Positions 1,344 to 47,763 of a DNA stretch of 64,000 nucleotides are shown piece by piece. Every line of letters begins with the position of its first letter. Within the stretch, counting starts at the first letter, position 1. The notes under the pieces are model-generated. The model worked only from the letters and a program-made list of their open reading frames with translations. It was not told where the DNA came from and searched no databases. Both the position numbers and the translations under genes were made by a program. The stretch is from Escherichia coli (GTDB lineage: Bacteria > Pseudomonadota > Gammaproteobacteria > Enterobacterales > Enterobacteriaceae): NCBI RefSeq assembly GCF_003019035.1, contig NZ_CP027447.1. One strand, given 5' to 3'.

Positions 1344-1832
1344 ATGAAGACCATTCTACCTGCAGTATTGTTTGCCGCTTTCGCCACCACTTCCGCCTGG
1401 GCGGCAGAAAGCGTCCAGCCACTGGAAAAAATCGCACCTTATCCACAAGCTGAAAAAGGCATGAAGCGTCAGGTGATTCAGTTAACTCCGCAAGAAGATG
1501 AATCTACCCTGAAAGTAGAACTGTTAATCGGTCAGACGCTGGAAGTCGACTGCAATTTGCATCGTCTCGGCGGGAAGCTGGAAAGCAAAACGCTGGAAGG
1601 CTGGGGCTATGATTATTATGTCTTTGATAAAGTTAGCTCGCCGGTTTCCACGATGATGGCTTGCCCGGATGGCAAGAAAGAGAAGAAATTTGTCACCGCG
1701 TATCTGGGCGATGCTGGAATGCTGCGTTACAACAGCAAGCTGCCGATCGTGGTGTATACGCCAGACAATGTGGATGTGAAGTACCGTGTCTGGAAGGCGG
1801 AAGAGAAAATTGACAACGCGGTTGTCCGCTAA
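1344..1832 (+). CDS. eco: Ecotin, periplasmic serine protease inhibitor
   Basis: ORF track starts at 1323 (MKKESKK...); the second ATG at 1344 gives the canonical 162-aa protein [20 protein letters not shown] with signal peptide. Confidence 0.93.
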
Positions 1833-37814: not shown

Positions 37815-39143
37815 TTATTTAGCATGTGAAATAACATTGTCTTTCTGGGCGTTATCTTTTTTATTATCAATTTTCATTGATAACAAAATAGCTACGGCGA
37901 TAAAGCAAAGAATCGCCTCAACAATAAATATCCCCGTGGCTCCATAATGTGTAGAAACATAGCCAAGTGATTTATTGATCAGAAAACCACCCAAACTTGA
38001 ACAAGAGTTAATAAACGCAATACTGATTGCCAGGCCTGATGGTGAAAGTAAAGCTGAGGGTAAAGCCCAGTACGGACCGTAATAACTGAGAATGCCTACA
38101 CCGTATAATGTTAATCCCATCATGCGCAGCGTCATCGAAGGTACAAGTGCGATCATTAAAAAACCGCAACCTGCAACCAACATCGGTAGTGCGGCATGCC
38201 ATTTCCTTTCATTCTTTTTATCGGAATGCCATCCCCATAATGGCATACTGAACATCGCGAAAATAAACGGAATACTCATAATCAAACCGACATCGGTATC
38301 TGTGAAATCCGATGAAAATCCTTTAACCAACCCCGGTAACCAGTAATTTGCCGCCAACGCCGCTGCCTGAATAAACATATAAGCAAATGAGAGTTGTAGT
38401 AATACTGGATTTTTAATGATTGACAGAAAAGATGCATTTGTATTTTTATTTAATGCTGCGGCTTTTTCGTTATCAGAATTAAGTTTATCGACCAATGCGG
38501 TGACTTGCGATGGTGTAAGCCAGCGGGCTTTTTCCGGACGATCTGGCAGTAAATAAAAGGTCAGCGCCCCCAATAACACCGTAGGAATGCCTTCAATAGC
38601 AAAAAGCCAGCGCCATCCTTCATAGTTACCGGTATTCATATGTTCAATAATCCAACCAGACATTGGTGCCGCCAGCACAGATGCAACTGCGATTGATAAC
38701 ATAAAAAAGCTATTCACTTTTCCACGTTCACGCGCCGGGAACCAACATGCCAGGTAGTAAACCATGCCAGGGAAAAAACCCGCTTCAAATATTCCCAAAA
38801 AGACCCGAGCGAGCAATATATGCTGGGTGTCTTTGGCAAAGAAAATTAACGTTGTTACTGTTCCCCAACCAACAATAATGGCGCTAATCCATTTTCTTGC
38901 ACCTAACTTTTGCAATCCAATACTGCTCGGAATTTGAAAAATCAAATAGGACACAAAAAATATTGAAGATATATTAGCAAAATCCTCTGGAGTAATACCA
39001 AGGGATTCATTCATGCGTAAAGCGGCAAATCCGATGTTAACACGATCCATATAGTTAAAAAAATACAGAATAAATGCTAACGGAATAATCTTCCTTTTCA
39101 CAATAGAAATGGCGTCATACAAATCTTTCTGAGGACTGCTCAT
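37815..39143 (-). CDS. MFS transporter, anion:cation symporter family (sugar-acid type)
   Basis: 442-aa polytopic ORF; conserved DRxNIGFA and GIFEAGFFPG motifs as in RhmT/DgoT-type transporters; AAGGTG Shine-Dalgarno; 12-bp gap to the dehydratase gene. Confidence 0.8.
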   Translation of the reverse strand: MSSPQKDLYDAISIVKRKIIPLAFILYFFNYMDRVNIGFAALRMNESLGITPEDFANISSIFFVSYLIFQIPSSIGLQKLGARKWISAIIVGWGTVTTLIFFAKDTQHILLARVFLGIFEAGFFPGMVYYLACWFPARERGKVNSFFMLSIAVASVLAAPMSGWIIEHMNTGNYEGWRWLFAIEGIPTVLLGALTFYLLPDRPEKARWLTPSQVTALVDKLNSDNEKAAALNKNTNASFLSIIKNPVLLQLSFAYMFIQAAALAANYWLPGLVKGFSSDFTDTDVGLIMSIPFIFAMFSMPLWGWHSDKKNERKWHAALPMLVAGCGFLMIALVPSMTLRMMGLTLYGVGILSYYGPYWALPSALLSPSGLAISIAFINSCSSLGGFLINKSLGYVSTHYGATGIFIVEAILCFIAVAILLSMKIDNKKDNAQKDNVISHAK

Positions 39144-39380
39144 TTTGTTTCACCTTTTGTGCTTCAATGAATAAGAGTACTGCCCGAAGTGGATATTACG
39201 TAAAAAATAATCCAGTTCAAAAGGTGATGTGTTATATCTGATATATCAGCTTGATCATTGATTGAAACACTAAGCTACAACAATAAGATATATCATTTTT
39301 GTCATATCTGATATATTAGACACCTTCATTGATAAAATGATTACATATAATGGACCAGCAGCTTAATAAGGGGCAAAGGA

Positions 39381-40079
39381 ATGAGAGATAAAGCGAAACG
39401 TGACTTAAGTCACATATCAATTGAGATACCAAAATCCGTAACACAGGTCATCAAAGAAAAAATCAGGGATATGATAATTCATGGCGATCTCAGTCTTGGG
39501 CAACCGATAAGTGAAAATGAACTTTCGAATATCCTGGCGGTAAGTAAAACACCTATTCGTGAAGCTTTTATTTTACTTAGTCACAATGAAAATCTGATCA
39601 ATATCATTCCACGCAGCGGAACATTCGTTTTTTCCGTAACAGATAAAGATATTAATGACCTCATAAAAATGCGAGTAATTCTGGAGCAGGGTGCAATTCG
39701 TGAAGCAATGGAAAAGAATGAAAACAATGTCATCATTGAATTAAGTAGCATACTATCAAAATCAGCAAAAATTAATGCCGAGCGTGATACTCAGGCTTAT
39801 CTTAAATTGGATCATGATTTTCATTATGTGTTTGTTAAATACGCTGCTAATAAATACATCTCTCAGGCACACCAATTGATATCCGCACGTTTACTTGCTA
39901 TTCGTTATCGACTGGATTTCACTACGGAATATATTACCAATTCAAATCGTGGCCATGCCACTATTTTAGATATGCTAAAAAATAATAACGTTGAAGGTGT
40001 TTGTAATTTTATTACTCATCACGTAAGTAGTGGATTTACCGAGCGTGCACGAAAAATTCTCTCGTTATCTACACAGTAA
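39381..40079 (+). CDS. GntR-family transcriptional regulator (FadR/FCD-type C-terminal domain)
   Basis: 232-aa ORF; N-terminal winged HTH (ENELSNILAVSKTPIREAF); divergent from the MFS-dehydratase pair; AAGGGG Shine-Dalgarno 7 nt upstream. Confidence 0.8.
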   Translation: MRDKAKRDLSHISIEIPKSVTQVIKEKIRDMIIHGDLSLGQPISENELSNILAVSKTPIREAFILLSHNENLINIIPRSGTFVFSVTDKDINDLIKMRVILEQGAIREAMEKNENNVIIELSSILSKSAKINAERDTQAYLKLDHDFHYVFVKYAANKYISQAHQLISARLLAIRYRLDFTTEYITNSNRGHATILDMLKNNNVEGVCNFITHHVSSGFTERARKILSLSTQ

Positions 40080-40156
40080 AATGTGAATGAGTTTATAACA
40101 CTGGCACTTTTCACCTGCTATACTGCCCGACAACCTTTATAGACTCTTATGTAACA

Positions 40157-40879
40157 ATGAACACTGAAAATCTCCTTAAAAACAATAACGTAGACCACGA
40201 AGAGATCGCTAAATTTGAAGCCGTCGCCTCCCGCTGGTGGGATCTTGAAGGTGAGTTCAAACCGCTGCACCGCATTAACCCGCTGCGTCTGGGCTATATT
40301 GCCGAGCGTGCTGGCGGTTTATTTGGCAAAAAGGTGCTCGATGTCGGTTGTGGCGGCGGCATTCTGGCCGAGAGTATGGCGCGCGAAGGCGCGACGGTGA
40401 CCGGTCTGGATATGGGCTTTGAGCCATTGCAGGTGGCAAAGTTGCACGCGCTGGAAAGTGGCATTCAGGTAGAGTACGTGCAGGAAACCGTGGAAGAGCA
40501 CGCGGCAAAACATGCCGGGCAGTATGACGTGGTGACCTGCATGGAGATGCTGGAGCACGTGCCCGATCCGCAGTCAGTGGTCAGAGCCTGTGCGCAACTG
40601 GTGAAACCGGGCGGCGATGTCTTTTTCTCGACGCTTAACCGCAACGGCAAGTCATGGCTGATGGCGGTAGTCGGCGCAGAATATATTTTGCGCATGGTGC
40701 CTAAAGGTACACATGATGTGAAGAAGTTTATTAAACCGGCAGAATTGCTGGGCTGGGTGGATCAGACAAGCCTTAAAGAGCGGCATATGACTGGGCTGCA
40801 TTACAACCCGATCACTAATTCCTTTAAGCTCGGCCCCGGCGTGGATGTGAACTATATGCTGCATACGCAGAATAAGTGA
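40157..40879 (+). CDS. ubiG: UbiG, ubiquinone biosynthesis O-methyltransferase
   Basis: 240-aa ORF with SAM-binding [13 protein letters not shown] motif; N-terminus [16 protein letters not shown] differs from the recalled K-12 N-terminus, the rest is near-identical. Confidence 0.93.
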
Positions 40880-41017: not shown

Positions 41018-44000
41018 TTACCATTTCACTGTCATCGACAAAAACCCTGCCGTCTGGGCAAAATCATCACTCCCTTTCTGCCACGCCACGCTACCACGCA
41101 GCGAAACTCGCTGACTGATATTGCCCGTTATTCCCACTTTTATTTCACCCCGTTGCTTCACCGCATCGTCACTGATAGTGCTGCCATCTTCTTCAATTTC
41201 CGTCGCATGGGGATCGTGATAATAATTCAGATCTAATGTTGGTATGACACCAACCGCGGTACGCCATTCGCTGTGTAAACCCAGCCGCGTTTGAATATCA
41301 TCACCCTGCGATTGTGACACCCGCGCATGGTTAGCAGCGGTGAAATCATCCTGCTGCACGCCCTGATAAATCACCTGCGCCTGTGGTTCAATCACCACTC
41401 CATGCCCCGGTAACCACTGATACCCGGCTTCCAGCGAGGCGATAATCCCCGATGAGTGGTAATGATCCGCGCCATCTTCATGTTCGGAAACATCATTGTT
41501 AAACCACGCGTATTGCAGCCAGCTATCCAGCCAGGCCCCCTGCTTCTGATTACCGTGCTGGAACCAGCTTGAGGTCAGACCAACGGCATAACCGTGGTTC
41601 TGGTTATCGGCGCGAGTTCCGGTCATATTCGAGCGGCTGTCGCCCTGGTTATCACTGTAGCCACCAACCGCCCCAAGCATCCACTCGCCATCCATGCCCC
41701 AGCGCCCGCTAAACAAGTCGCCGCTAAGCTGCACCGTAGAAGTGTCTTCATGCTGAGCCAGTTGCCCCGCTGCTGTGTAATGATAATCTCCGCCGATAAC
41801 ACGTAAATTCAGCGTCTGACCATCGCCACCAGCGTGATCGCGTCGCTCCATCACAAATGCCTGATTTGCCGCACGTAGGTTATTGAGATAGCCACCAACT
41901 TTGGCATTCAGCACCGGCTGGTAGGCAGGCGTAGGGGCTGGAGCCGGGTCGGGTGTTGGATCAGGATCCGGCGTAGGATCAGGATCTGGAGTCGGGTCTG
42001 GATCGGGCGGCGATGGTGGCGTTACTTCTTGCGATCGCAGATACCAGTCGTTGTTATCTTCCACCAGCGTGTAGTCATACGCTCCCATATTGACGTAGCC
42101 GCTGCCCGCCAGACTGAACTGCGCATTGTTTTGAAATTGCGTTGGATCGGCTGCGAAATCAACCACTTTAATGCCCGTAGATGTCGGCTCACCAATACCC
42201 GTAATGGGATTAATTACCACGGTCGTGTTGCCAGCAGTATTACCGTTCAACACCAGTTGGTCGCTTGCCGAGTCATCGCCGTTTAATTCGCTGTCGAGAA
42301 ACAACGTACCGCCACCGGTGTAATCACCGTTTACCGTGAGCGTGTCGCCAGCAACGCCATTTTGCAGACTGACAGCACCGGAAGTATTAGTTAGATCACC
42401 ATTGACCGTCACGTCTGAAAGATAAGTCAGGCTGTCAGTTTCAAGGTTGGTATTAAGCTCGCCTGTCAGCGTCACACCATCGGTGGCATTCACCAACGTA
42501 CCGTCGCCGCTAAACAGCGAGGCATCCAGCGCCTGGTTCGTATCCTGCTGCGTCAATCGCAACACAGTACCATCGGTTATGTCGATATCGCCGCCAGAGG
42601 TGGCATCGATTGAACGAATATCCTGATTTTGCCCGGTTTCAAAAACACCGTCTTCCCCCACCCACAGTGAAGAAACATAAGGAATAATATTCTCCGCTTC
42701 ACCTTTTAGCGTTCCGTCCTCCACACGTACCGCAGACGTCGCAGTGCCGCTGGCGGTCAACTCCAGCGTCCCGCCGCCACTTTTAGTCAACGTGCTTACG
42801 CTATCCAGTTGTTGCCCGGTACTATCCGCCATCAACCCGCCCCATTGCGTATCTACGCCATCCTCAACGTGTATTTCGCCATCAGCGCGCATTTCAATAT
42901 TCCTGCCCTGACCTGTTGTAGCCGAGCGAGTGTCAACATCAGTCGTCACATCCATTTCACTGTGTTGTTGGGGATCTGTGAAGATCACTGAACGGTTGTA
43001 ACTTGTGTCCCCCAATTGCGAATTATCGCTGACTTCAAGCGTACCGGAGGCGATTTGCGTATTACCGAGATAACCGTTGTTATTCGCCAGCGTTACGCGC
43101 TGATCCCCCGCATTAATGACGACATAAACGCCATTCTGGCTGGCATCACTGCCGCCAATATGTAAATCATCGCCACTGCTGATATCAACGACATCATTAC
43201 TACCAATCACTGTCCCCCCGCTGCCGCTGATTTGCAGACCGTCATTGTATGAGCTATCGCCATCCCAGGTGGTGAAATCAGAGAGATCCAATACTCCGCC
43301 ATTTAGCACGATCGATTGCGGATCGCTCTGCATTGCCCGTAAATCGGCCTGATTCCCCGCCAGCGACAATACGGCGTTATCTTCCACCACAATATCGCCG
43401 GTTAATGCCATCGACTGCGCCCCTGTCAGGAGATAGCTGCCATCTTGCGCTACCGTCAACTGTCCTTCACCCTGAATCGAGCCGGAAAAACCGCCCTGGT
43501 TTACGGTAACATTGCCGCCTGCGTCGATATTCAAAATGCCATTAGCAAAACCGGTTAATGAGTGCACAAACGTTTGTTGTGTATTGCCAACATTCAGTTC
43601 TGCCTGATACTCAGAATGAACAGTGCTGCCGACCATCAGACCAAAGCAATCCTGCGGATCGCTCTGACAGTGCGTGTCGCCGACATTCATTAACTCATCG
43701 CTGCGCCCCAACGTCACCTCGCCATTCTGGATACTCATCTCGCCGGTAAACGCATTATTGTCGGCATTGAGGACTAACTCTCCCGCTCCCTCTTTAACGA
43801 TGACTCCCGTTCCGGCAAGAGAATCAATCGCGCCATCGTTGCTGGTATTGCCTATTACCAGCGTTTTATCGGCGGCAATGTTAAATTCAGCCACACTATG
43901 ACCGATATACATAAAGCCCCCCGCCGCTGCCGTCGCCGAATGGTCATATCCCGAGGCGCTGTTATTTTCATCAATCATCACACCATTGTTTTGGTCATAA

Positions 44001-44782
44001 TTATCATCAACAGAAATATCAATAAGATACGGGGATGTGGTGCTGCTGGTATAAATTGCTCCGCCATAACCTTCTGCATAGTTATTGGTAAAGGAGGTAT
44101 TATTAATTATCGTTTTTCCTGAAAGATGTGTGTTATCCGTACTATTATCCGTAACATCAATGGCACCGCCGTCCCCATCACTATAGCTGGTTGATGTATA
44201 TGCCTGATTATTATCAAAAATGACATCACTTAAATAAATATCATTATTGATAGAATAAATAGCGCCACCTTTACCATCATTGGCGATATTATTCGCAAAT
44301 ATTGCATTAGTGATATTTAAATCCATATCACCGGCATCGTTTGTTCCCGCAGAATAGATTGCTCCGCCATAGCCTCCTGCAACGTTACTGTCGAAAATAA
44401 CATTCGCAAGATTTATCATTGAGTTTTCTTTAGCAAAGATAGCTCCGCCATTATTATATTCGCCACTAATCGAGTTATTAGCAAACAGGGTCATCCCTGT
44501 TTCATTTTGTGGTGATATCGTAAATTCAGCACTTTGCTGCAAAAATACGGCGCCACCGCTGGCATTATTGGCCATACCCGAAAAAATCACCCATTGCCCA
44601 TCGGCGATGCTCCAGTCCTGCGTAATGCCTGAAAGGCTTTGCCTGCTGGCCTGACAACTCGCTTTGATATCATATCCCTGGCATGAATCCAAAACCTCCG
44701 CGACACTGTTAACAGAGAAAAGAGATGCAATCATTGACGGGAGTAAAGATAAATACTCCTTGCGTAGAAAAATAATCCGCAT
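41018..44782 (-). CDS. yfaL: YfaL-type autotransporter adhesin (type Va secretion)
   Basis: 1254-aa ORF; N-terminal signal, Gly/Asn/Thr-rich passenger repeats, proline-rich PPSPPDPDPTPDPDPTPDPDPTPDPAPAPTP linker, C-terminal beta-barrel ending ...MTVKW. Confidence 0.88.
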   Translation of the reverse strand: MRIIFLRKEYLSLLPSMIASLFSVNSVAEVLDSCQGYDIKASCQASRQSLSGITQDWSIADGQWVIFSGMANNASGGAVFLQQSAEFTISPQNETGMTLFANNSISGEYNNGGAIFAKENSMINLANVIFDSNVAGGYGGAIYSAGTNDAGDMDLNITNAIFANNIANDGKGGAIYSINNDIYLSDVIFDNNQAYTSTSYSDGDGGAIDVTDNSTDNTHLSGKTIINNTSFTNNYAEGYGGAIYTSSTTSPYLIDISVDDNYDQNNGVMIDENNSASGYDHSATAAAGGFMYIGHSVAEFNIAADKTLVIGNTSNDGAIDSLAGTGVIVKEGAGELVLNADNNAFTGEMSIQNGEVTLGRSDELMNVGDTHCQSDPQDCFGLMVGSTVHSEYQAELNVGNTQQTFVHSLTGFANGILNIDAGGNVTVNQGGFSGSIQGEGQLTVAQDGSYLLTGAQSMALTGDIVVEDNAVLSLAGNQADLRAMQSDPQSIVLNGGVLDLSDFTTWDGDSSYNDGLQISGSGGTVIGSNDVVDISSGDDLHIGGSDASQNGVYVVINAGDQRVTLANNNGYLGNTQIASGTLEVSDNSQLGDTSYNRSVIFTDPQQHSEMDVTTDVDTRSATTGQGRNIEMRADGEIHVEDGVDTQWGGLMADSTGQQLDSVSTLTKSGGGTLELTASGTATSAVRVEDGTLKGEAENIIPYVSSLWVGEDGVFETGQNQDIRSIDATSGGDIDITDGTVLRLTQQDTNQALDASLFSGDGTLVNATDGVTLTGELNTNLETDSLTYLSDVTVNGDLTNTSGAVSLQNGVAGDTLTVNGDYTGGGTLFLDSELNGDDSASDQLVLNGNTAGNTTVVINPITGIGEPTSTGIKVVDFAADPTQFQNNAQFSLAGSGYVNMGAYDYTLVEDNNDWYLRSQEVTPPSPPDPDPTPDPDPTPDPDPTPDPAPAPTPAYQPVLNAKVGGYLNNLRAANQAFVMERRDHAGGDGQTLNLRVIGGDYHYTAAGQLAQHEDTSTVQLSGDLFSGRWGMDGEWMLGAVGGYSDNQGDSRSNMTGTRADNQNHGYAVGLTSSWFQHGNQKQGAWLDSWLQYAWFNNDVSEHEDGADHYHSSGIIASLEAGYQWLPGHGVVIEPQAQVIYQGVQQDDFTAANHARVSQSQGDDIQTRLGLHSEWRTAVGVIPTLDLNYYHDPHATEIEEDGSTISDDAVKQRGEIKVGITGNISQRVSLRGSVAWQKGSDDFAQTAGFLSMTVKW
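41930..42012. repeat. Short imperfect tandem DNA repeat inside yfaL encoding the (D/P)(P/T) linker
   Basis: Repeated ggatc(a/c/t)gg(a/c)gt(a/c/g)gg-type units visible across about 80 bp. Confidence 0.7.
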
Positions 44783-45315
44783 ATTAATCTGACCATCATT
44801 TTCTATAAGACGGCATATTTAATCGCATTATACGATATGGGTTATTTTTCTTTTGTAAATTGTTCAACCCGGTGCAATGGCTATTTTGTTATTATTTCAT
44901 GAATAATATCAGTGCGTCATAATTCAAGTTAATCACCTTAAGGGATATCAGTTATGTTTAAACTGAATTAAAGTAATGAATAATTTTCTTATAATATAAG
45001 GTAAATTAACAAAATGGCTTCGCATTTAACAACAACCGAAGAGAAAACAACCATTTCGACATCAACAATCGCTTACATTCGCTTATATATTGACCATAAC
45101 TGATACATCAGATTATGTGATGACTCGTGCTTAGATCAATTTTTGCAATCATTAGCCAAAAGATTAATAAACCATCTATATCAATTTATCTAACCTATTC
45201 TTCCGTTCAAGAAATCGCCGAACAGTTATTTTTAACAAATTTTTCTCTTCCCATTGACTTTCCCGGACACCTTGTCTGACCTAAGGTGCGCGAAAGCCAC
45301 TTTTTCCTTCCTGAG

Positions 45316-45324
45316 TTATCCACA
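45316..45324 (+). promoter_or_regulatory. DnaA box in the nrdAB promoter region
   Basis: Exact TTATCCACA consensus. Confidence 0.7.
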
Positions 45325-45353
45325 AAGTTATGCACTTGCAAGAGGGCCATTTT

Positions 45354-45400
45354 CACACTATCTTGCAGTGAATCCCAAACATACCCCCTATATATAGTGT
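45354..45400 (+). promoter_or_regulatory. Pair of NrdR boxes in the nrdAB promoter
   Basis: CACACTATCTTGCAGTG and CCCCTATATATAGTGT, partial palindromes of the acaCwAtATaTwGtgt type, centres about 31 bp apart and about 90 bp upstream of the nrdA ATG. Confidence 0.65.
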
Positions 45401-45477
45401 TCTAAGCAGCTTCCCTCACTACAGGTAGTCTGCATGAAACTATTGCGGAAAGAATTCCAAAAACAGGTACGACATAC

Positions 45478-47763
45478 ATGAATCAGAATCTGCTGGTGAC
45501 AAAGCGCGACGGTAGCACAGAGCGCATCAATCTCGACAAAATCCATCGCGTTCTGGATTGGGCGGCAGAAGGACTGCATAACGTTTCGATTTCCCAGGTC
45601 GAACTGCGCTCCCACATTCAGTTTTATGACGGTATCAAGACCTCTGACATCCACGAAACCATTATCAAGGCTGCCGCAGACCTGATCTCCCGTGATGCGC
45701 CGGATTATCAGTATCTCGCCGCGCGCCTGGCGATCTTCCACCTGCGTAAAAAAGCCTACGGCCAGTTTGAGCCGCCTGCGCTGTACGACCACGTGGTGAA
45801 AATGGTCGAGATGGGCAAATACGATAATCATCTGCTGGAAGACTACACGGAAGAAGAGTTCAAGCAGATGGACACGTTTATCGATCACGACCGTGATATG
45901 ACCTTCTCTTATGCTGCCGTTAAGCAGCTGGAAGGCAAATATCTGGTGCAGAACCGTGTGACCGGCGAAATCTACGAAAGCGCCCAGTTCCTTTATATTC
46001 TGGTTGCCGCGTGCCTGTTCTCGAACTACCCGCGTGAAACGCGCCTGCAATACGTGAAGCGTTTTTACGACGCGGTTTCCACATTTAAAATTTCGCTGCC
46101 GACGCCAATCATGTCCGGCGTGCGTACCCCGACTCGTCAGTTCAGCTCCTGCGTACTGATCGAGTGCGGCGACAGCCTGGATTCCATCAACGCCACCTCC
46201 AGCGCGATTGTTAAATACGTTTCCCAGCGTGCCGGGATCGGCATCAACGCCGGGCGTATTCGTGCGCTGGGTAGCCCGATTCGCGGTGGCGAAGCGTTCC
46301 ATACCGGTTGTATTCCGTTCTATAAGCATTTCCAGACAGCGGTGAAATCCTGCTCTCAGGGCGGTGTGCGTGGCGGTGCGGCTACGCTGTTCTACCCGAT
46401 GTGGCATCTGGAAGTTGAAAGCCTGCTGGTGTTGAAAAACAACCGTGGGGTGGAAGGCAACCGCGTGCGTCATATGGACTACGGGGTACAAATCAACAAA
46501 CTGATGTATACCCGTCTGCTGAAAGGTGAAGATATCACTCTGTTCAGCCCGTCCGACGTACCGGGGTTGTACGACGCGTTCTTCGCCGATCAGGAAGAGT
46601 TTGAACGCCTGTATACCAAATATGAGAAAGACGACAGCATCCGCAAGCAGCGTGTGAAAGCCGTTGAGCTGTTCTCGCTGATGATGCAGGAACGTGCGTC
46701 TACCGGTCGTATCTATATTCAGAACGTTGACCACTGCAATACCCATAGCCCGTTTGATCCGGTCATCGCGCCAGTGCGCCAGTCTAACCTGTGCCTGGAA
46801 ATCGCCCTGCCGACCAAACCGCTGAACGACGTCAACGACGAGAACGGTGAAATCGCGCTGTGTACGCTGTCTGCTTTCAACCTGGGCGCAATTAACAGCC
46901 TGGATGAACTGGAAGAGCTGGCAATTCTGGCGGTTCGCGCACTCGACGCACTGCTGGATTATCAGGATTACCCGATCCCGGCCGCTAAACGTGGAGCGAT
47001 GGGGCGTCGTACGCTGGGTATTGGTGTGATCAACTTCGCTTACTACCTGGCGAAGCACGGTAAACGCTACTCCGACGGCAGCGCCAACAACCTGACGCAT
47101 AAAACCTTCGAAGCCATTCAGTATTACCTGCTGAAAGCGTCTAATGAGCTGGCGAAAGAGCAAGGCGCGTGCCCGTGGTTTAACGAAACCACTTACGCGA
47201 AAGGGATCCTGCCGATCGATACCTATAAGAAAGATCTGGATGCCATCGCTAATGAGCCGCTGCATTACGACTGGGAAGCACTGCGTGAGTCAATCAAAAC
47301 GCACGGCCTGCGTAACTCCACGCTTTCTGCTCTGATGCCGTCAGAGACTTCTTCGCAGATCTCTAACGCCACTAACGGTATTGAACCGCCGCGTGGTTAC
47401 GTCAGCATCAAAGCGTCGAAAGACGGTATTCTGCGCCAGGTGGTGCCGGACTACGAGCATCTGCACGACGCCTATGAGCTGCTGTGGGAAATGCCGGGTA
47501 ACGATGGCTATCTGCAACTGGTGGGTATCATGCAGAAATTTATCGATCAGTCGATCTCTGCTAACACCAACTACGATCCATCACGTTTCCCGTCAGGAAA
47601 AGTGCCGATGCAGCAGTTGCTGAAAGACCTGCTCACCGCCTACAAATTCGGGGTCAAAACGCTGTATTATCAGAACACCCGTGACGGTGCTGAAGACGCA
47701 CAAGACGATCTGGTGCCGTCAATCCAGGACGATGGCTGCGAAAGCGGCGCATGTAAGATCTGA
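45478..47763 (+). CDS. nrdA: Ribonucleoside-diphosphate reductase 1 alpha subunit
   Basis: 761-aa ORF MNQNLLVTKRDGSTERINLDKIHRVLDWAAEGL... Confidence 0.97.
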   Translation: MNQNLLVTKRDGSTERINLDKIHRVLDWAAEGLHNVSISQVELRSHIQFYDGIKTSDIHETIIKAAADLISRDAPDYQYLAARLAIFHLRKKAYGQFEPPALYDHVVKMVEMGKYDNHLLEDYTEEEFKQMDTFIDHDRDMTFSYAAVKQLEGKYLVQNRVTGEIYESAQFLYILVAACLFSNYPRETRLQYVKRFYDAVSTFKISLPTPIMSGVRTPTRQFSSCVLIECGDSLDSINATSSAIVKYVSQRAGIGINAGRIRALGSPIRGGEAFHTGCIPFYKHFQTAVKSCSQGGVRGGAATLFYPMWHLEVESLLVLKNNRGVEGNRVRHMDYGVQINKLMYTRLLKGEDITLFSPSDVPGLYDAFFADQEEFERLYTKYEKDDSIRKQRVKAVELFSLMMQERASTGRIYIQNVDHCNTHSPFDPVIAPVRQSNLCLEIALPTKPLNDVNDENGEIALCTLSAFNLGAINSLDELEELAILAVRALDALLDYQDYPIPAAKRGAMGRRTLGIGVINFAYYLAKHGKRYSDGSANNLTHKTFEAIQYYLLKASNELAKEQGACPWFNETTYAKGILPIDTYKKDLDAIANEPLHYDWEALRESIKTHGLRNSTLSALMPSETSSQISNATNGIEPPRGYVSIKASKDGILRQVVPDYEHLHDAYELLWEMPGNDGYLQLVGIMQKFIDQSISANTNYDPSRFPSGKVPMQQLLKDLLTAYKFGVKTLYYQNTRDGAEDAQDDLVPSIQDDGCESGACKI

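Follow-up and report, generated by a model that had tools for sequence, protein, structure and literature searches.

The spacer between yfaL and nrdA of Escherichia coli is probably a composite of the nrdAB control region and the flank of a yfaL cassette

The spacer between the divergent yfaL and nrdA genes of Escherichia coli is best explained as a composite, very probably one in which the nrdAB control region (~45203..45477) is placed back to back with the flank of a yfaL cassette (~44783..45202). Positions are those of the window, the whole stretch of 64,000 nucleotides that was analysed. The nrdAB promoter is a textbook case of the coupling of dNTP supply to replication via DnaA and NrdR. 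The central content is already in the literature, where both the nrdAB promoter and an H-NS-bound promoter island have been described, and the main use of the present analysis is a clean map parting the nrd control block from the yfaL-linked DNA. In the proposed scheme, ~45203..45477 would serve as the promoter and leader of nrdAB, on which RNA polymerase would use TTGCAA-17-TATCTT. DnaA bound to two boxes abutting the -35 element would activate or repress transcription depending on its nucleotide state and level, and expression would further be modulated by HusR, Fis, IciA and an AT-rich upstream element. The other part, ~44783..45202, would be the 5' flank of a yfaL autotransporter cassette found in few lineages. 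An H-NS coat over this AT-rich flank, which is packed with promoter hexamers, would keep yfaL nearly silent under laboratory conditions, and the flank would supply one or more usable sigma-70 promoters, among them 45139..45112 on the minus strand, together with a conserved Fis-type site. The protein binding and regulatory effects in this two-module scheme are those of the literature, in which the H-NS, Fis and SELEX data are for K-12, and the published Fis and AT-rich elements have been matched to coordinates of the window by our own assignment.

The ORFs of the window define the locus as follows.

40157..40879, plus strand, ubiG
41018..44782, minus strand, yfaL
44783..45477, divergent spacer between yfaL and nrdA, 695 bp
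45478..47763, plus strand, nrdA

The product of yfaL gives matches to an autotransporter beta-domain, autochaperone and PATR. The spacer is 100% identical in E. coli strain 1190 and is found in 5422 of the 5426 complete E. coli genomes. Its G+C content is 34.4%, as compared with 50.6% for the whole window; together with the ORF coordinates, this bears out the first-pass annotation of the DNA, which had described an AT-rich spacer between divergent yfaL and nrdA. The distal 450 bp of the spacer have a G+C content of 29.8%, the minimum among the full 450-bp bins of the window. A search for direct and inverted repeats in the spacer detected tandem DnaA boxes and otherwise short low-identity pairs only, and a published '45 bp inverted repeat' was not located with confidence in this search. 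Another AT-rich stretch with many promoter-like sites (38700..40100, 34-35% G+C) is present just upstream of ubiG, and within it lies an ORF encoding a protein of 232 aa with GntR and FCD domains (39381..40079, plus strand). K-12 presumably has no gene at this position, and the ORF may be a strain-specific insertion.

The two parts of the spacer can be distinguished by comparison of 80 Enterobacterales nrdA loci, which were obtained from a scan with the NrdA N-terminus using one genome per species (Salmonella is not among them). In 66 species, ubiG immediately precedes nrdA, and the two genes are separated by 320-605 bp (~350 bp in Enterobacteriaceae). Only five sampled species have yfaL between ubiG and nrdA, with yfaL-nrdA spacers of 653-702 bp: E. 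coli, E. albertii, Pseudocitrobacter, Enterobacteriaceae bacterium RIT691 and Rahnella bonaserana. The amino acid identity of YfaL is 68% for Pseudocitrobacter, 54% for RIT691 and 53% for Rahnella bonaserana. In a multiple alignment, 44783..~45142 has no counterpart in the spacers of yfaL-less species; homology to them begins at ~45143 and becomes clear from ~45203. Within Escherichia and Pseudocitrobacter, a highly conserved block starts at 45196..45204. When loci with and without the cassette are compared, Rahnella has a segment of 4113 bp in place of 116 bp, with its right junction 410 bp upstream of the nrdA ATG, and the right junction of the cassette in RIT691 is 281 bp upstream of the ATG. 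The conserved block of E. coli starts 274-282 bp upstream of nrdA, which is the same place as the RIT691 junction. What these sequences show directly comprises coordinates and motif scores as well as how conservation is patterned, how patchily yfaL is distributed and where the junction lies.

The same boundary appears within the genus. Against an E. albertii-type allele, the window shows 96-100% identity from ~45232 rightwards and only ~40-60% leftwards, and this low identity extends ~200 bp into yfaL. The E. albertii-type allele is also present in the strain behind locus L004. Compared with K-12, the spacer has 24 differences, of which 21 fall within 44783..45202 (~5% of positions there), and there are only three substitutions in 45203..45477. 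Nissle 1917 shows 78-84% identity to the window over 44833..45082, a region in which B2 strains differ at 16-22% of positions.

The first ~200 bp of yfaL, encoding the signal-peptide region, and ~450 bp of the DNA upstream of it exist in Escherichia as two barely alignable alleles covering 44583..45232, one of the K-12/B2 type and the other of the E. albertii type, and the breakpoint between them is sharp, near 45204..45232. Over its first 500 aa, YfaL of the window has its nearest counterpart in Nissle 1917 (94.8%, as compared with 78.2% for K-12), whereas the spacer is closest to K-12 (96.5%, as compared with ~88-90% for Nissle). Since YfaL is nearest to that of Nissle 1917 and the spacer is nearest to that of K-12, this mismatch of relatedness between the two sequences indicates recombination near the start of yfaL.

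The right module contains the following elements; unstranded means that no strand is assigned.

45204..45261, plus strand, conserved upstream element recognised by cross-species motifs, consisting of CGTTCAAGAAATCGCCGAACAG, an AT tract (45226..45249) and then ATTGACT
45207..45350, minus strand, ypaB, a 47-aa ORF annotated by RefSeq, overlapping the DnaA boxes and the nrdA -35; missed in the first-pass annotation
45263..45278, unstranded, HusR (YnfL) box CCGGACACCTTGTCTG, whose sequence, given in Table 1 of PMC12844172, was found in the window
45298..45313, unstranded, HusR (YnfL) box CACTTTTTCCTTCCTG, from the same table and located in the window
45316..45324, plus strand, DnaA box TTATCCACA, an exact match to TTWTNCACA
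45328..45336, plus strand, DnaA box TTATGCACT with one mismatch, abutting the -35, its last base being the first base of the -35
45336..45364, plus strand, nrdAB core promoter read from the sequence, with -35 TTGCAA (45336..45341), a 17-bp spacer and -10 TATCTT (45359..45364)
45353..45368, unstranded, NrdR box 0 TCACACTATCTTGCAG, classically the upstream box, sharing bases with the -10; rank 21 among the 63,985 window positions at 7.8 bits
45385..45400, unstranded, NrdR box 1 CCCCTATATATAGTGT; 16.9 bits, rank 1 of 63,985 window positions
45416..45431, unstranded, NrdR box 2 TCACTACAGGTAGTCT (GTACTACAGGTAGTCT in K-12), starting 31 bp after box 1; 11.2 bits, rank 3

This module (45203..45477) shows hardly any variation within Escherichia, and the same motifs are met across Enterobacterales. 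It corresponds to the K-12 nrdAB promoter region in locus and motifs, with the three substitutions mentioned above. Box 2 of the window starts with TC where that of K-12 starts with GT, which brings the window slightly nearer to the NrdR consensus, and nothing else is notable in this comparison. The -35 and -10 hexamers are conserved in those species that share the arrangement of E. coli (type A, described below). Transcription of nrdAB presumably starts near 45368..45372, on the assumption of a leader of ~110 nt. Nearly all sampled Enterobacterales species have the motifs cgNNNAAGAAATCAGC and ATTGACA, which occur in both of the promoter architectures found among them. The conserved upstream element (45204..45261) probably corresponds to the AT-rich upstream region with Fis and IciA that figures in papers from the Fuchs laboratory, if our mapping of coordinates is right; these papers reportedly describe an upstream AT-rich sequence as well as binding of Fis and DnaA at nrd.

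The exact DnaA 9-mer occurs in two copies in the window as against ~0.5 expected, and a single 9-mer is not significant alone. A consensus DnaA box is found at the same position upstream of the -35 in 30 species. The DnaA site of the nrd promoter has been documented in K-12, where DnaA binds and affects transcription (review, PMC8203912). The exact DnaA box that had been noticed earlier at 45316..45324 is confirmed by this recurrence and by its identity with the documented site (PMC8203912). In the published view of nrd regulation, the nucleotide state of DnaA decides whether it activates or represses, the activators otherwise being Fis and IciA and the repressors H-NS and NrdR.

The conservation of the proximal part might alternatively reflect a coding sequence, in that ypaB would be a genuine small-protein gene. 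Most E. coli genomes carry it as a RefSeq annotation, and its mRNA, a minus-strand transcript, has been reported to be HusR-dependent and induced by azidothymidine (PMC12844172 among the sources). Against this, the reading frame is not intact in relatives: it is cut short by a premature stop in E. albertii, its ATG is no longer present in Nissle 1917, and other genera have no ypaB ORF, though the DNA motifs are conserved there. The product has no Pfam match, and the phenotypes of CRISPRi against ypaB have been explained in the literature by the nrdA promoter embedded in it. A protein-coding origin of the proximal conservation is quite unlikely, and ypaB was rejected as a real gene on account of its broken frame in relatives. 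It is probably a non-conserved ORF lying over regulatory DNA rather than a conserved protein gene, and the conserved block is better read as the control region of nrdAB.

To locate the NrdR boxes, a matrix was built from the four boxes of E. coli nrdHIEF and nrdDG (PMC12176259), which makes it independent of nrdAB. Box 1 is the best site of the window and hardly varies in 74 of 78 species; when it is mutated, NrdR no longer binds (PMC12176259). An NrdR operator would be expected to have a palindromic 16-bp box upstream of a ribonucleotide reductase operon and a second box 31-32 bp, or three helical turns, away, and there are two candidates for this second box, because box 0 starts 32 bp before box 1 and box 2 starts 31 bp after it. 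In vitro, the KD of NrdR is >6000 nM for boxes 0 and 1, the classical pair, and ~100 nM for box 1 with the newly recognised box 2 (PMC12176259), and the NrdR-binding oligonucleotides of that study match the window except for two bases of box 2. For comparison across species, 78 Enterobacterales nrdA upstream regions were anchored on box 1 and every offset was scored. The sole offset with an elevated score is -32, corresponding to box 0 (mean 7.4 bits, >7 bits in 73% of the 78 species), whereas the offset +31, corresponding to box 2, has a mean of -11.8 bits and exceeds 7 bits in 4% of species. Box 2 is confined to Escherichia and Pseudocitrobacter. Because -32 is elevated and +31 is not across the 78 species, box 0 rather than box 2 appears to be the partner of box 1 that has been kept by evolution, with the reservation that the -10/start region overlapped by box 0 is conserved separately. 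Thus, in vitro affinity, which favours box 2, and conservation, which favours box 0, disagree on the partner of box 1. Two NrdR-like boxes had been proposed at first sight. One of them (45385..45400) is genuine, being box 1, and the other (45354..45370) is box 0, for which the best register is 45353..45368 and which is conserved at -32; on the other hand, the proposed pair, boxes 0 and 1, binds weakly in vitro, and box 2 had been overlooked.

The left module contains the following elements.

44783..45202, unstranded, distal AT-rich segment linked to yfaL, with the yfaL promoter and leader, assigned from comparison, site density and the K-12 literature
45081..45095, unstranded, Fis-consensus site GCTTATATATTGACC, an exact match to GNNYAWWWWWTRNNC
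45112..45139, minus strand, candidate yfaL promoter TTGATC-16-CATAAT, found by a consensus scan and with the same hexamers in a SELEX table

The consensus scan detects promoter-like sites on both strands of the distal segment. There are six sigma-70-like sites in the distal 450 bp, or 13.3/kb as compared with 0.95/kb window-wide, which makes it the densest 450-bp stretch of the window. Its K-12 counterpart is the promoter island 2342143_534 'yfaL/ypaB', for which the three ChIP studies that have been compiled all report H-NS binding (PMC3661553). Panyukov and Ozoline (2013) list this island among their 78 'promoter islands' and mark it as associated with foreign genes. The present segment is orthologous to this island and shares the traits of promoter islands, namely low G+C content, the densest promoter-like sites of the window and association with a patchily distributed, and in this sense horizontally mobile, gene. 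It differs from the island in that H-NS binding has been reported for the K-12 allele, from which the allele of this strain differs at ~5% of positions (B2 strains at 16-22% over 44833..45082). In the RpoD genomic SELEX map of K-12, the yfaL promoter is flagged HNS, and the accompanying table gives TTGATC-16-CATAAT for yfaL (PMC3946193). Silencing by H-NS would also be expected for the present allele by analogy with K-12, whose distal segment differs from it at 21 positions. A search with the H-NS 10-mer motif TCGATAAATT, allowing up to two mismatches, gave two weak and uninformative matches in the spacer; in this region, neither H-NS nor Fis sites exceed shuffled sequences in simple consensus scans.

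It had been supposed that the distal part might hold sites for nucleoid proteins that silence yfaL, which agrees with the H-NS data on K-12 (PMC3661553, PMC3946193). By contrast, the accompanying statement that the distal ~500 bp have no assigned function does not hold, since ypaB, the HusR sites, the conserved upstream element, the yfaL promoter of the SELEX table and the promoter island all lie there. The sole GATC of the spacer (45134..45137) is situated in the -35 (TTGATC) of the SELEX-assigned yfaL promoter; it is not conserved in E. albertii or Pseudocitrobacter. In one paper, yfaL is among the genes with differentially methylated GATC sites.

A promoter-rich segment of this kind might instead encode an unannotated small regulatory RNA, as had also been suggested from the sequence at first sight. 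The promoter-like sites on its two strands would be consistent with such a gene, promoter islands are reported to yield short abortive oligonucleotides, and RT-qPCR and RNA-seq have both picked up transcripts of the ypaB region. However, even with a permissive threshold no Rfam match came near the threshold of any family, the only hits being chance-level ones to snoRNA and IS605 far below the gathering scores. A terminator scan detected no intrinsic-terminator-like site. Sliding-window RNA folding gave z-scores from -1.9 to +2.2 over both strands, which is not unusual, and the distal sequence is not conserved even between the E. coli and E. albertii alleles. A small-RNA gene in the distal segment is highly improbable, and the suggestion was dropped in favour of a flank that serves the control of yfaL.

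The Fis-consensus site at 45081..45095 has a bearing on which gene the distal segment serves. It is one of three exact matches to GNNYAWWWWWTRNNC in 64 kb, and the window-wide count of such matches is no higher than in shuffled sequences. On the other hand, it lies within 45073..45097, the only well-conserved patch of the distal segment, which is kept among three diverged yfaL-bearing alleles: the site aligned to 45081..45095 is exact in Pseudocitrobacter and has one mismatch in E. albertii, while the flanks are diverged. The comparison makes 45081..45095 a reasonable candidate for a Fis site acting on yfaL, nrd or both. Work by Augustin in 1994 is said to have found that Fis binds the nrd region, and the binding documented there may have involved this very site.

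The distal segment might alternatively be, in the main, a far-upstream activating region for nrdAB, working through Fis, DNA bending or supercoiling coupling, rather than a region for the control of yfaL. The position of the exact consensus site, ~280 bp upstream of the presumed nrd start, and its retention in three otherwise diverged alleles would fit such a role, as would the documented binding of Fis to the nrd regulatory region. Nevertheless, the distal segment is absent in the 66 sampled yfaL-less species, which keep the conserved proximal nrd elements. In E. albertii, it is replaced by a barely alignable allele and the nrd block is still 96-100% identical, and the conserved Fis-like site is present only where yfaL is present. 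A distal segment devoted mainly to nrdAB is unlikely for these reasons, and its assignment to the yfaL cassette is preferred. The left edge given for the nrd-relevant DNA is approximate, and Fis sites far upstream might act on nrd and yfaL alike.

The placement of DnaA boxes divides Enterobacterales into two groups. From the DNA around NrdR box 1 (90 bp on its upstream side and 75 bp on its downstream side), 75 species could be classified: in 30 of them (type A), DnaA boxes are located upstream of the -35, in 42 (type B) they form an inverted pair, TTATCCACA...TGTGGATAA, on the downstream side of NrdR box 1, and no species has both. The upstream type is found in Yersiniaceae, Pectobacteriaceae, Hafniaceae, Budviciaceae and Morganellaceae as well as in Escherichia and Pseudocitrobacter, while the downstream type is found in all the other sampled Enterobacteriaceae and in Erwiniaceae. 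Type B promoters resemble that of E. coli in having NrdR box 1 with a second box 32 bp before it, in retaining the conserved upstream element and in being regulated via DnaA boxes. They differ in two respects: the DnaA pair is situated in the leader, downstream of box 1, and the -10 (TAGAAT) is found on the upstream side of box 0. With its DnaA boxes upstream of the -35, E. coli resembles Yersiniaceae and Pectobacteriaceae.

Escherichia and Pseudocitrobacter, the only sampled Enterobacteriaceae of the upstream type, both have closely related yfaL cassettes adjoining the promoter. The identity of the E. coli promoter region is 51-59% to species of the first type and 43-50% to those of the second, whereas the nrdA coding sequence ranks them in the opposite order, and blastn with the spacer gave matches in first-type species only. 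The nrdAB promoter of Escherichia, which drives an essential gene, might, as a tentative and rather doubtful idea, be non-native, having been replaced by horizontal transfer of regulatory DNA with the adhesin cassette. The pattern is compatible with replacement along with the yfaL cassette and is no proof of it, as the identities are low and Salmonella is not in the sample. If replacement did occur, it would have changed the DnaA coupling of dNTP synthesis to replication, with an activator/repressor at the -35 as against boxes in the leader. Both the dichotomous placement of DnaA boxes, with Escherichia in the unexpected group, and the conflict between box 0 and box 2 are small points for specialists. 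The idea that the nrd region of E. coli is a mosaic of a type B upstream part and a type A core was also considered; it was weakened because the E. albertii allele shares ATCCAGATCAATA upstream with type A species, and the 'type B-like' match rests on two bases.

Part of the nrdA upstream region is also found in mobile elements. Phage-plasmids of the P1/P7/SJ46 type have a 115-130-bp copy of 45225/45240..45354, which adjoins hot, a gene homologous to that of the theta subunit of DNA polymerase III. It contains the AT tract, the HusR boxes, both DnaA boxes and the -35, and is already annotated in GenBank as 'nrdA-like promoter' and 'dnaA box'. The copy stops just before box 0 and the -10, and so differs from the chromosomal locus in lacking the NrdR boxes and nrdA. 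It is present in ~300 PLSDB plasmids and 15 phage records, with 95.4% identity in P7/SJ46-type elements and 82.6% in P1, and among the loci collected here it occupies 4001..4115 of L003, 2501..2629 of L084 and 1501..1615 of both L085 and L086.
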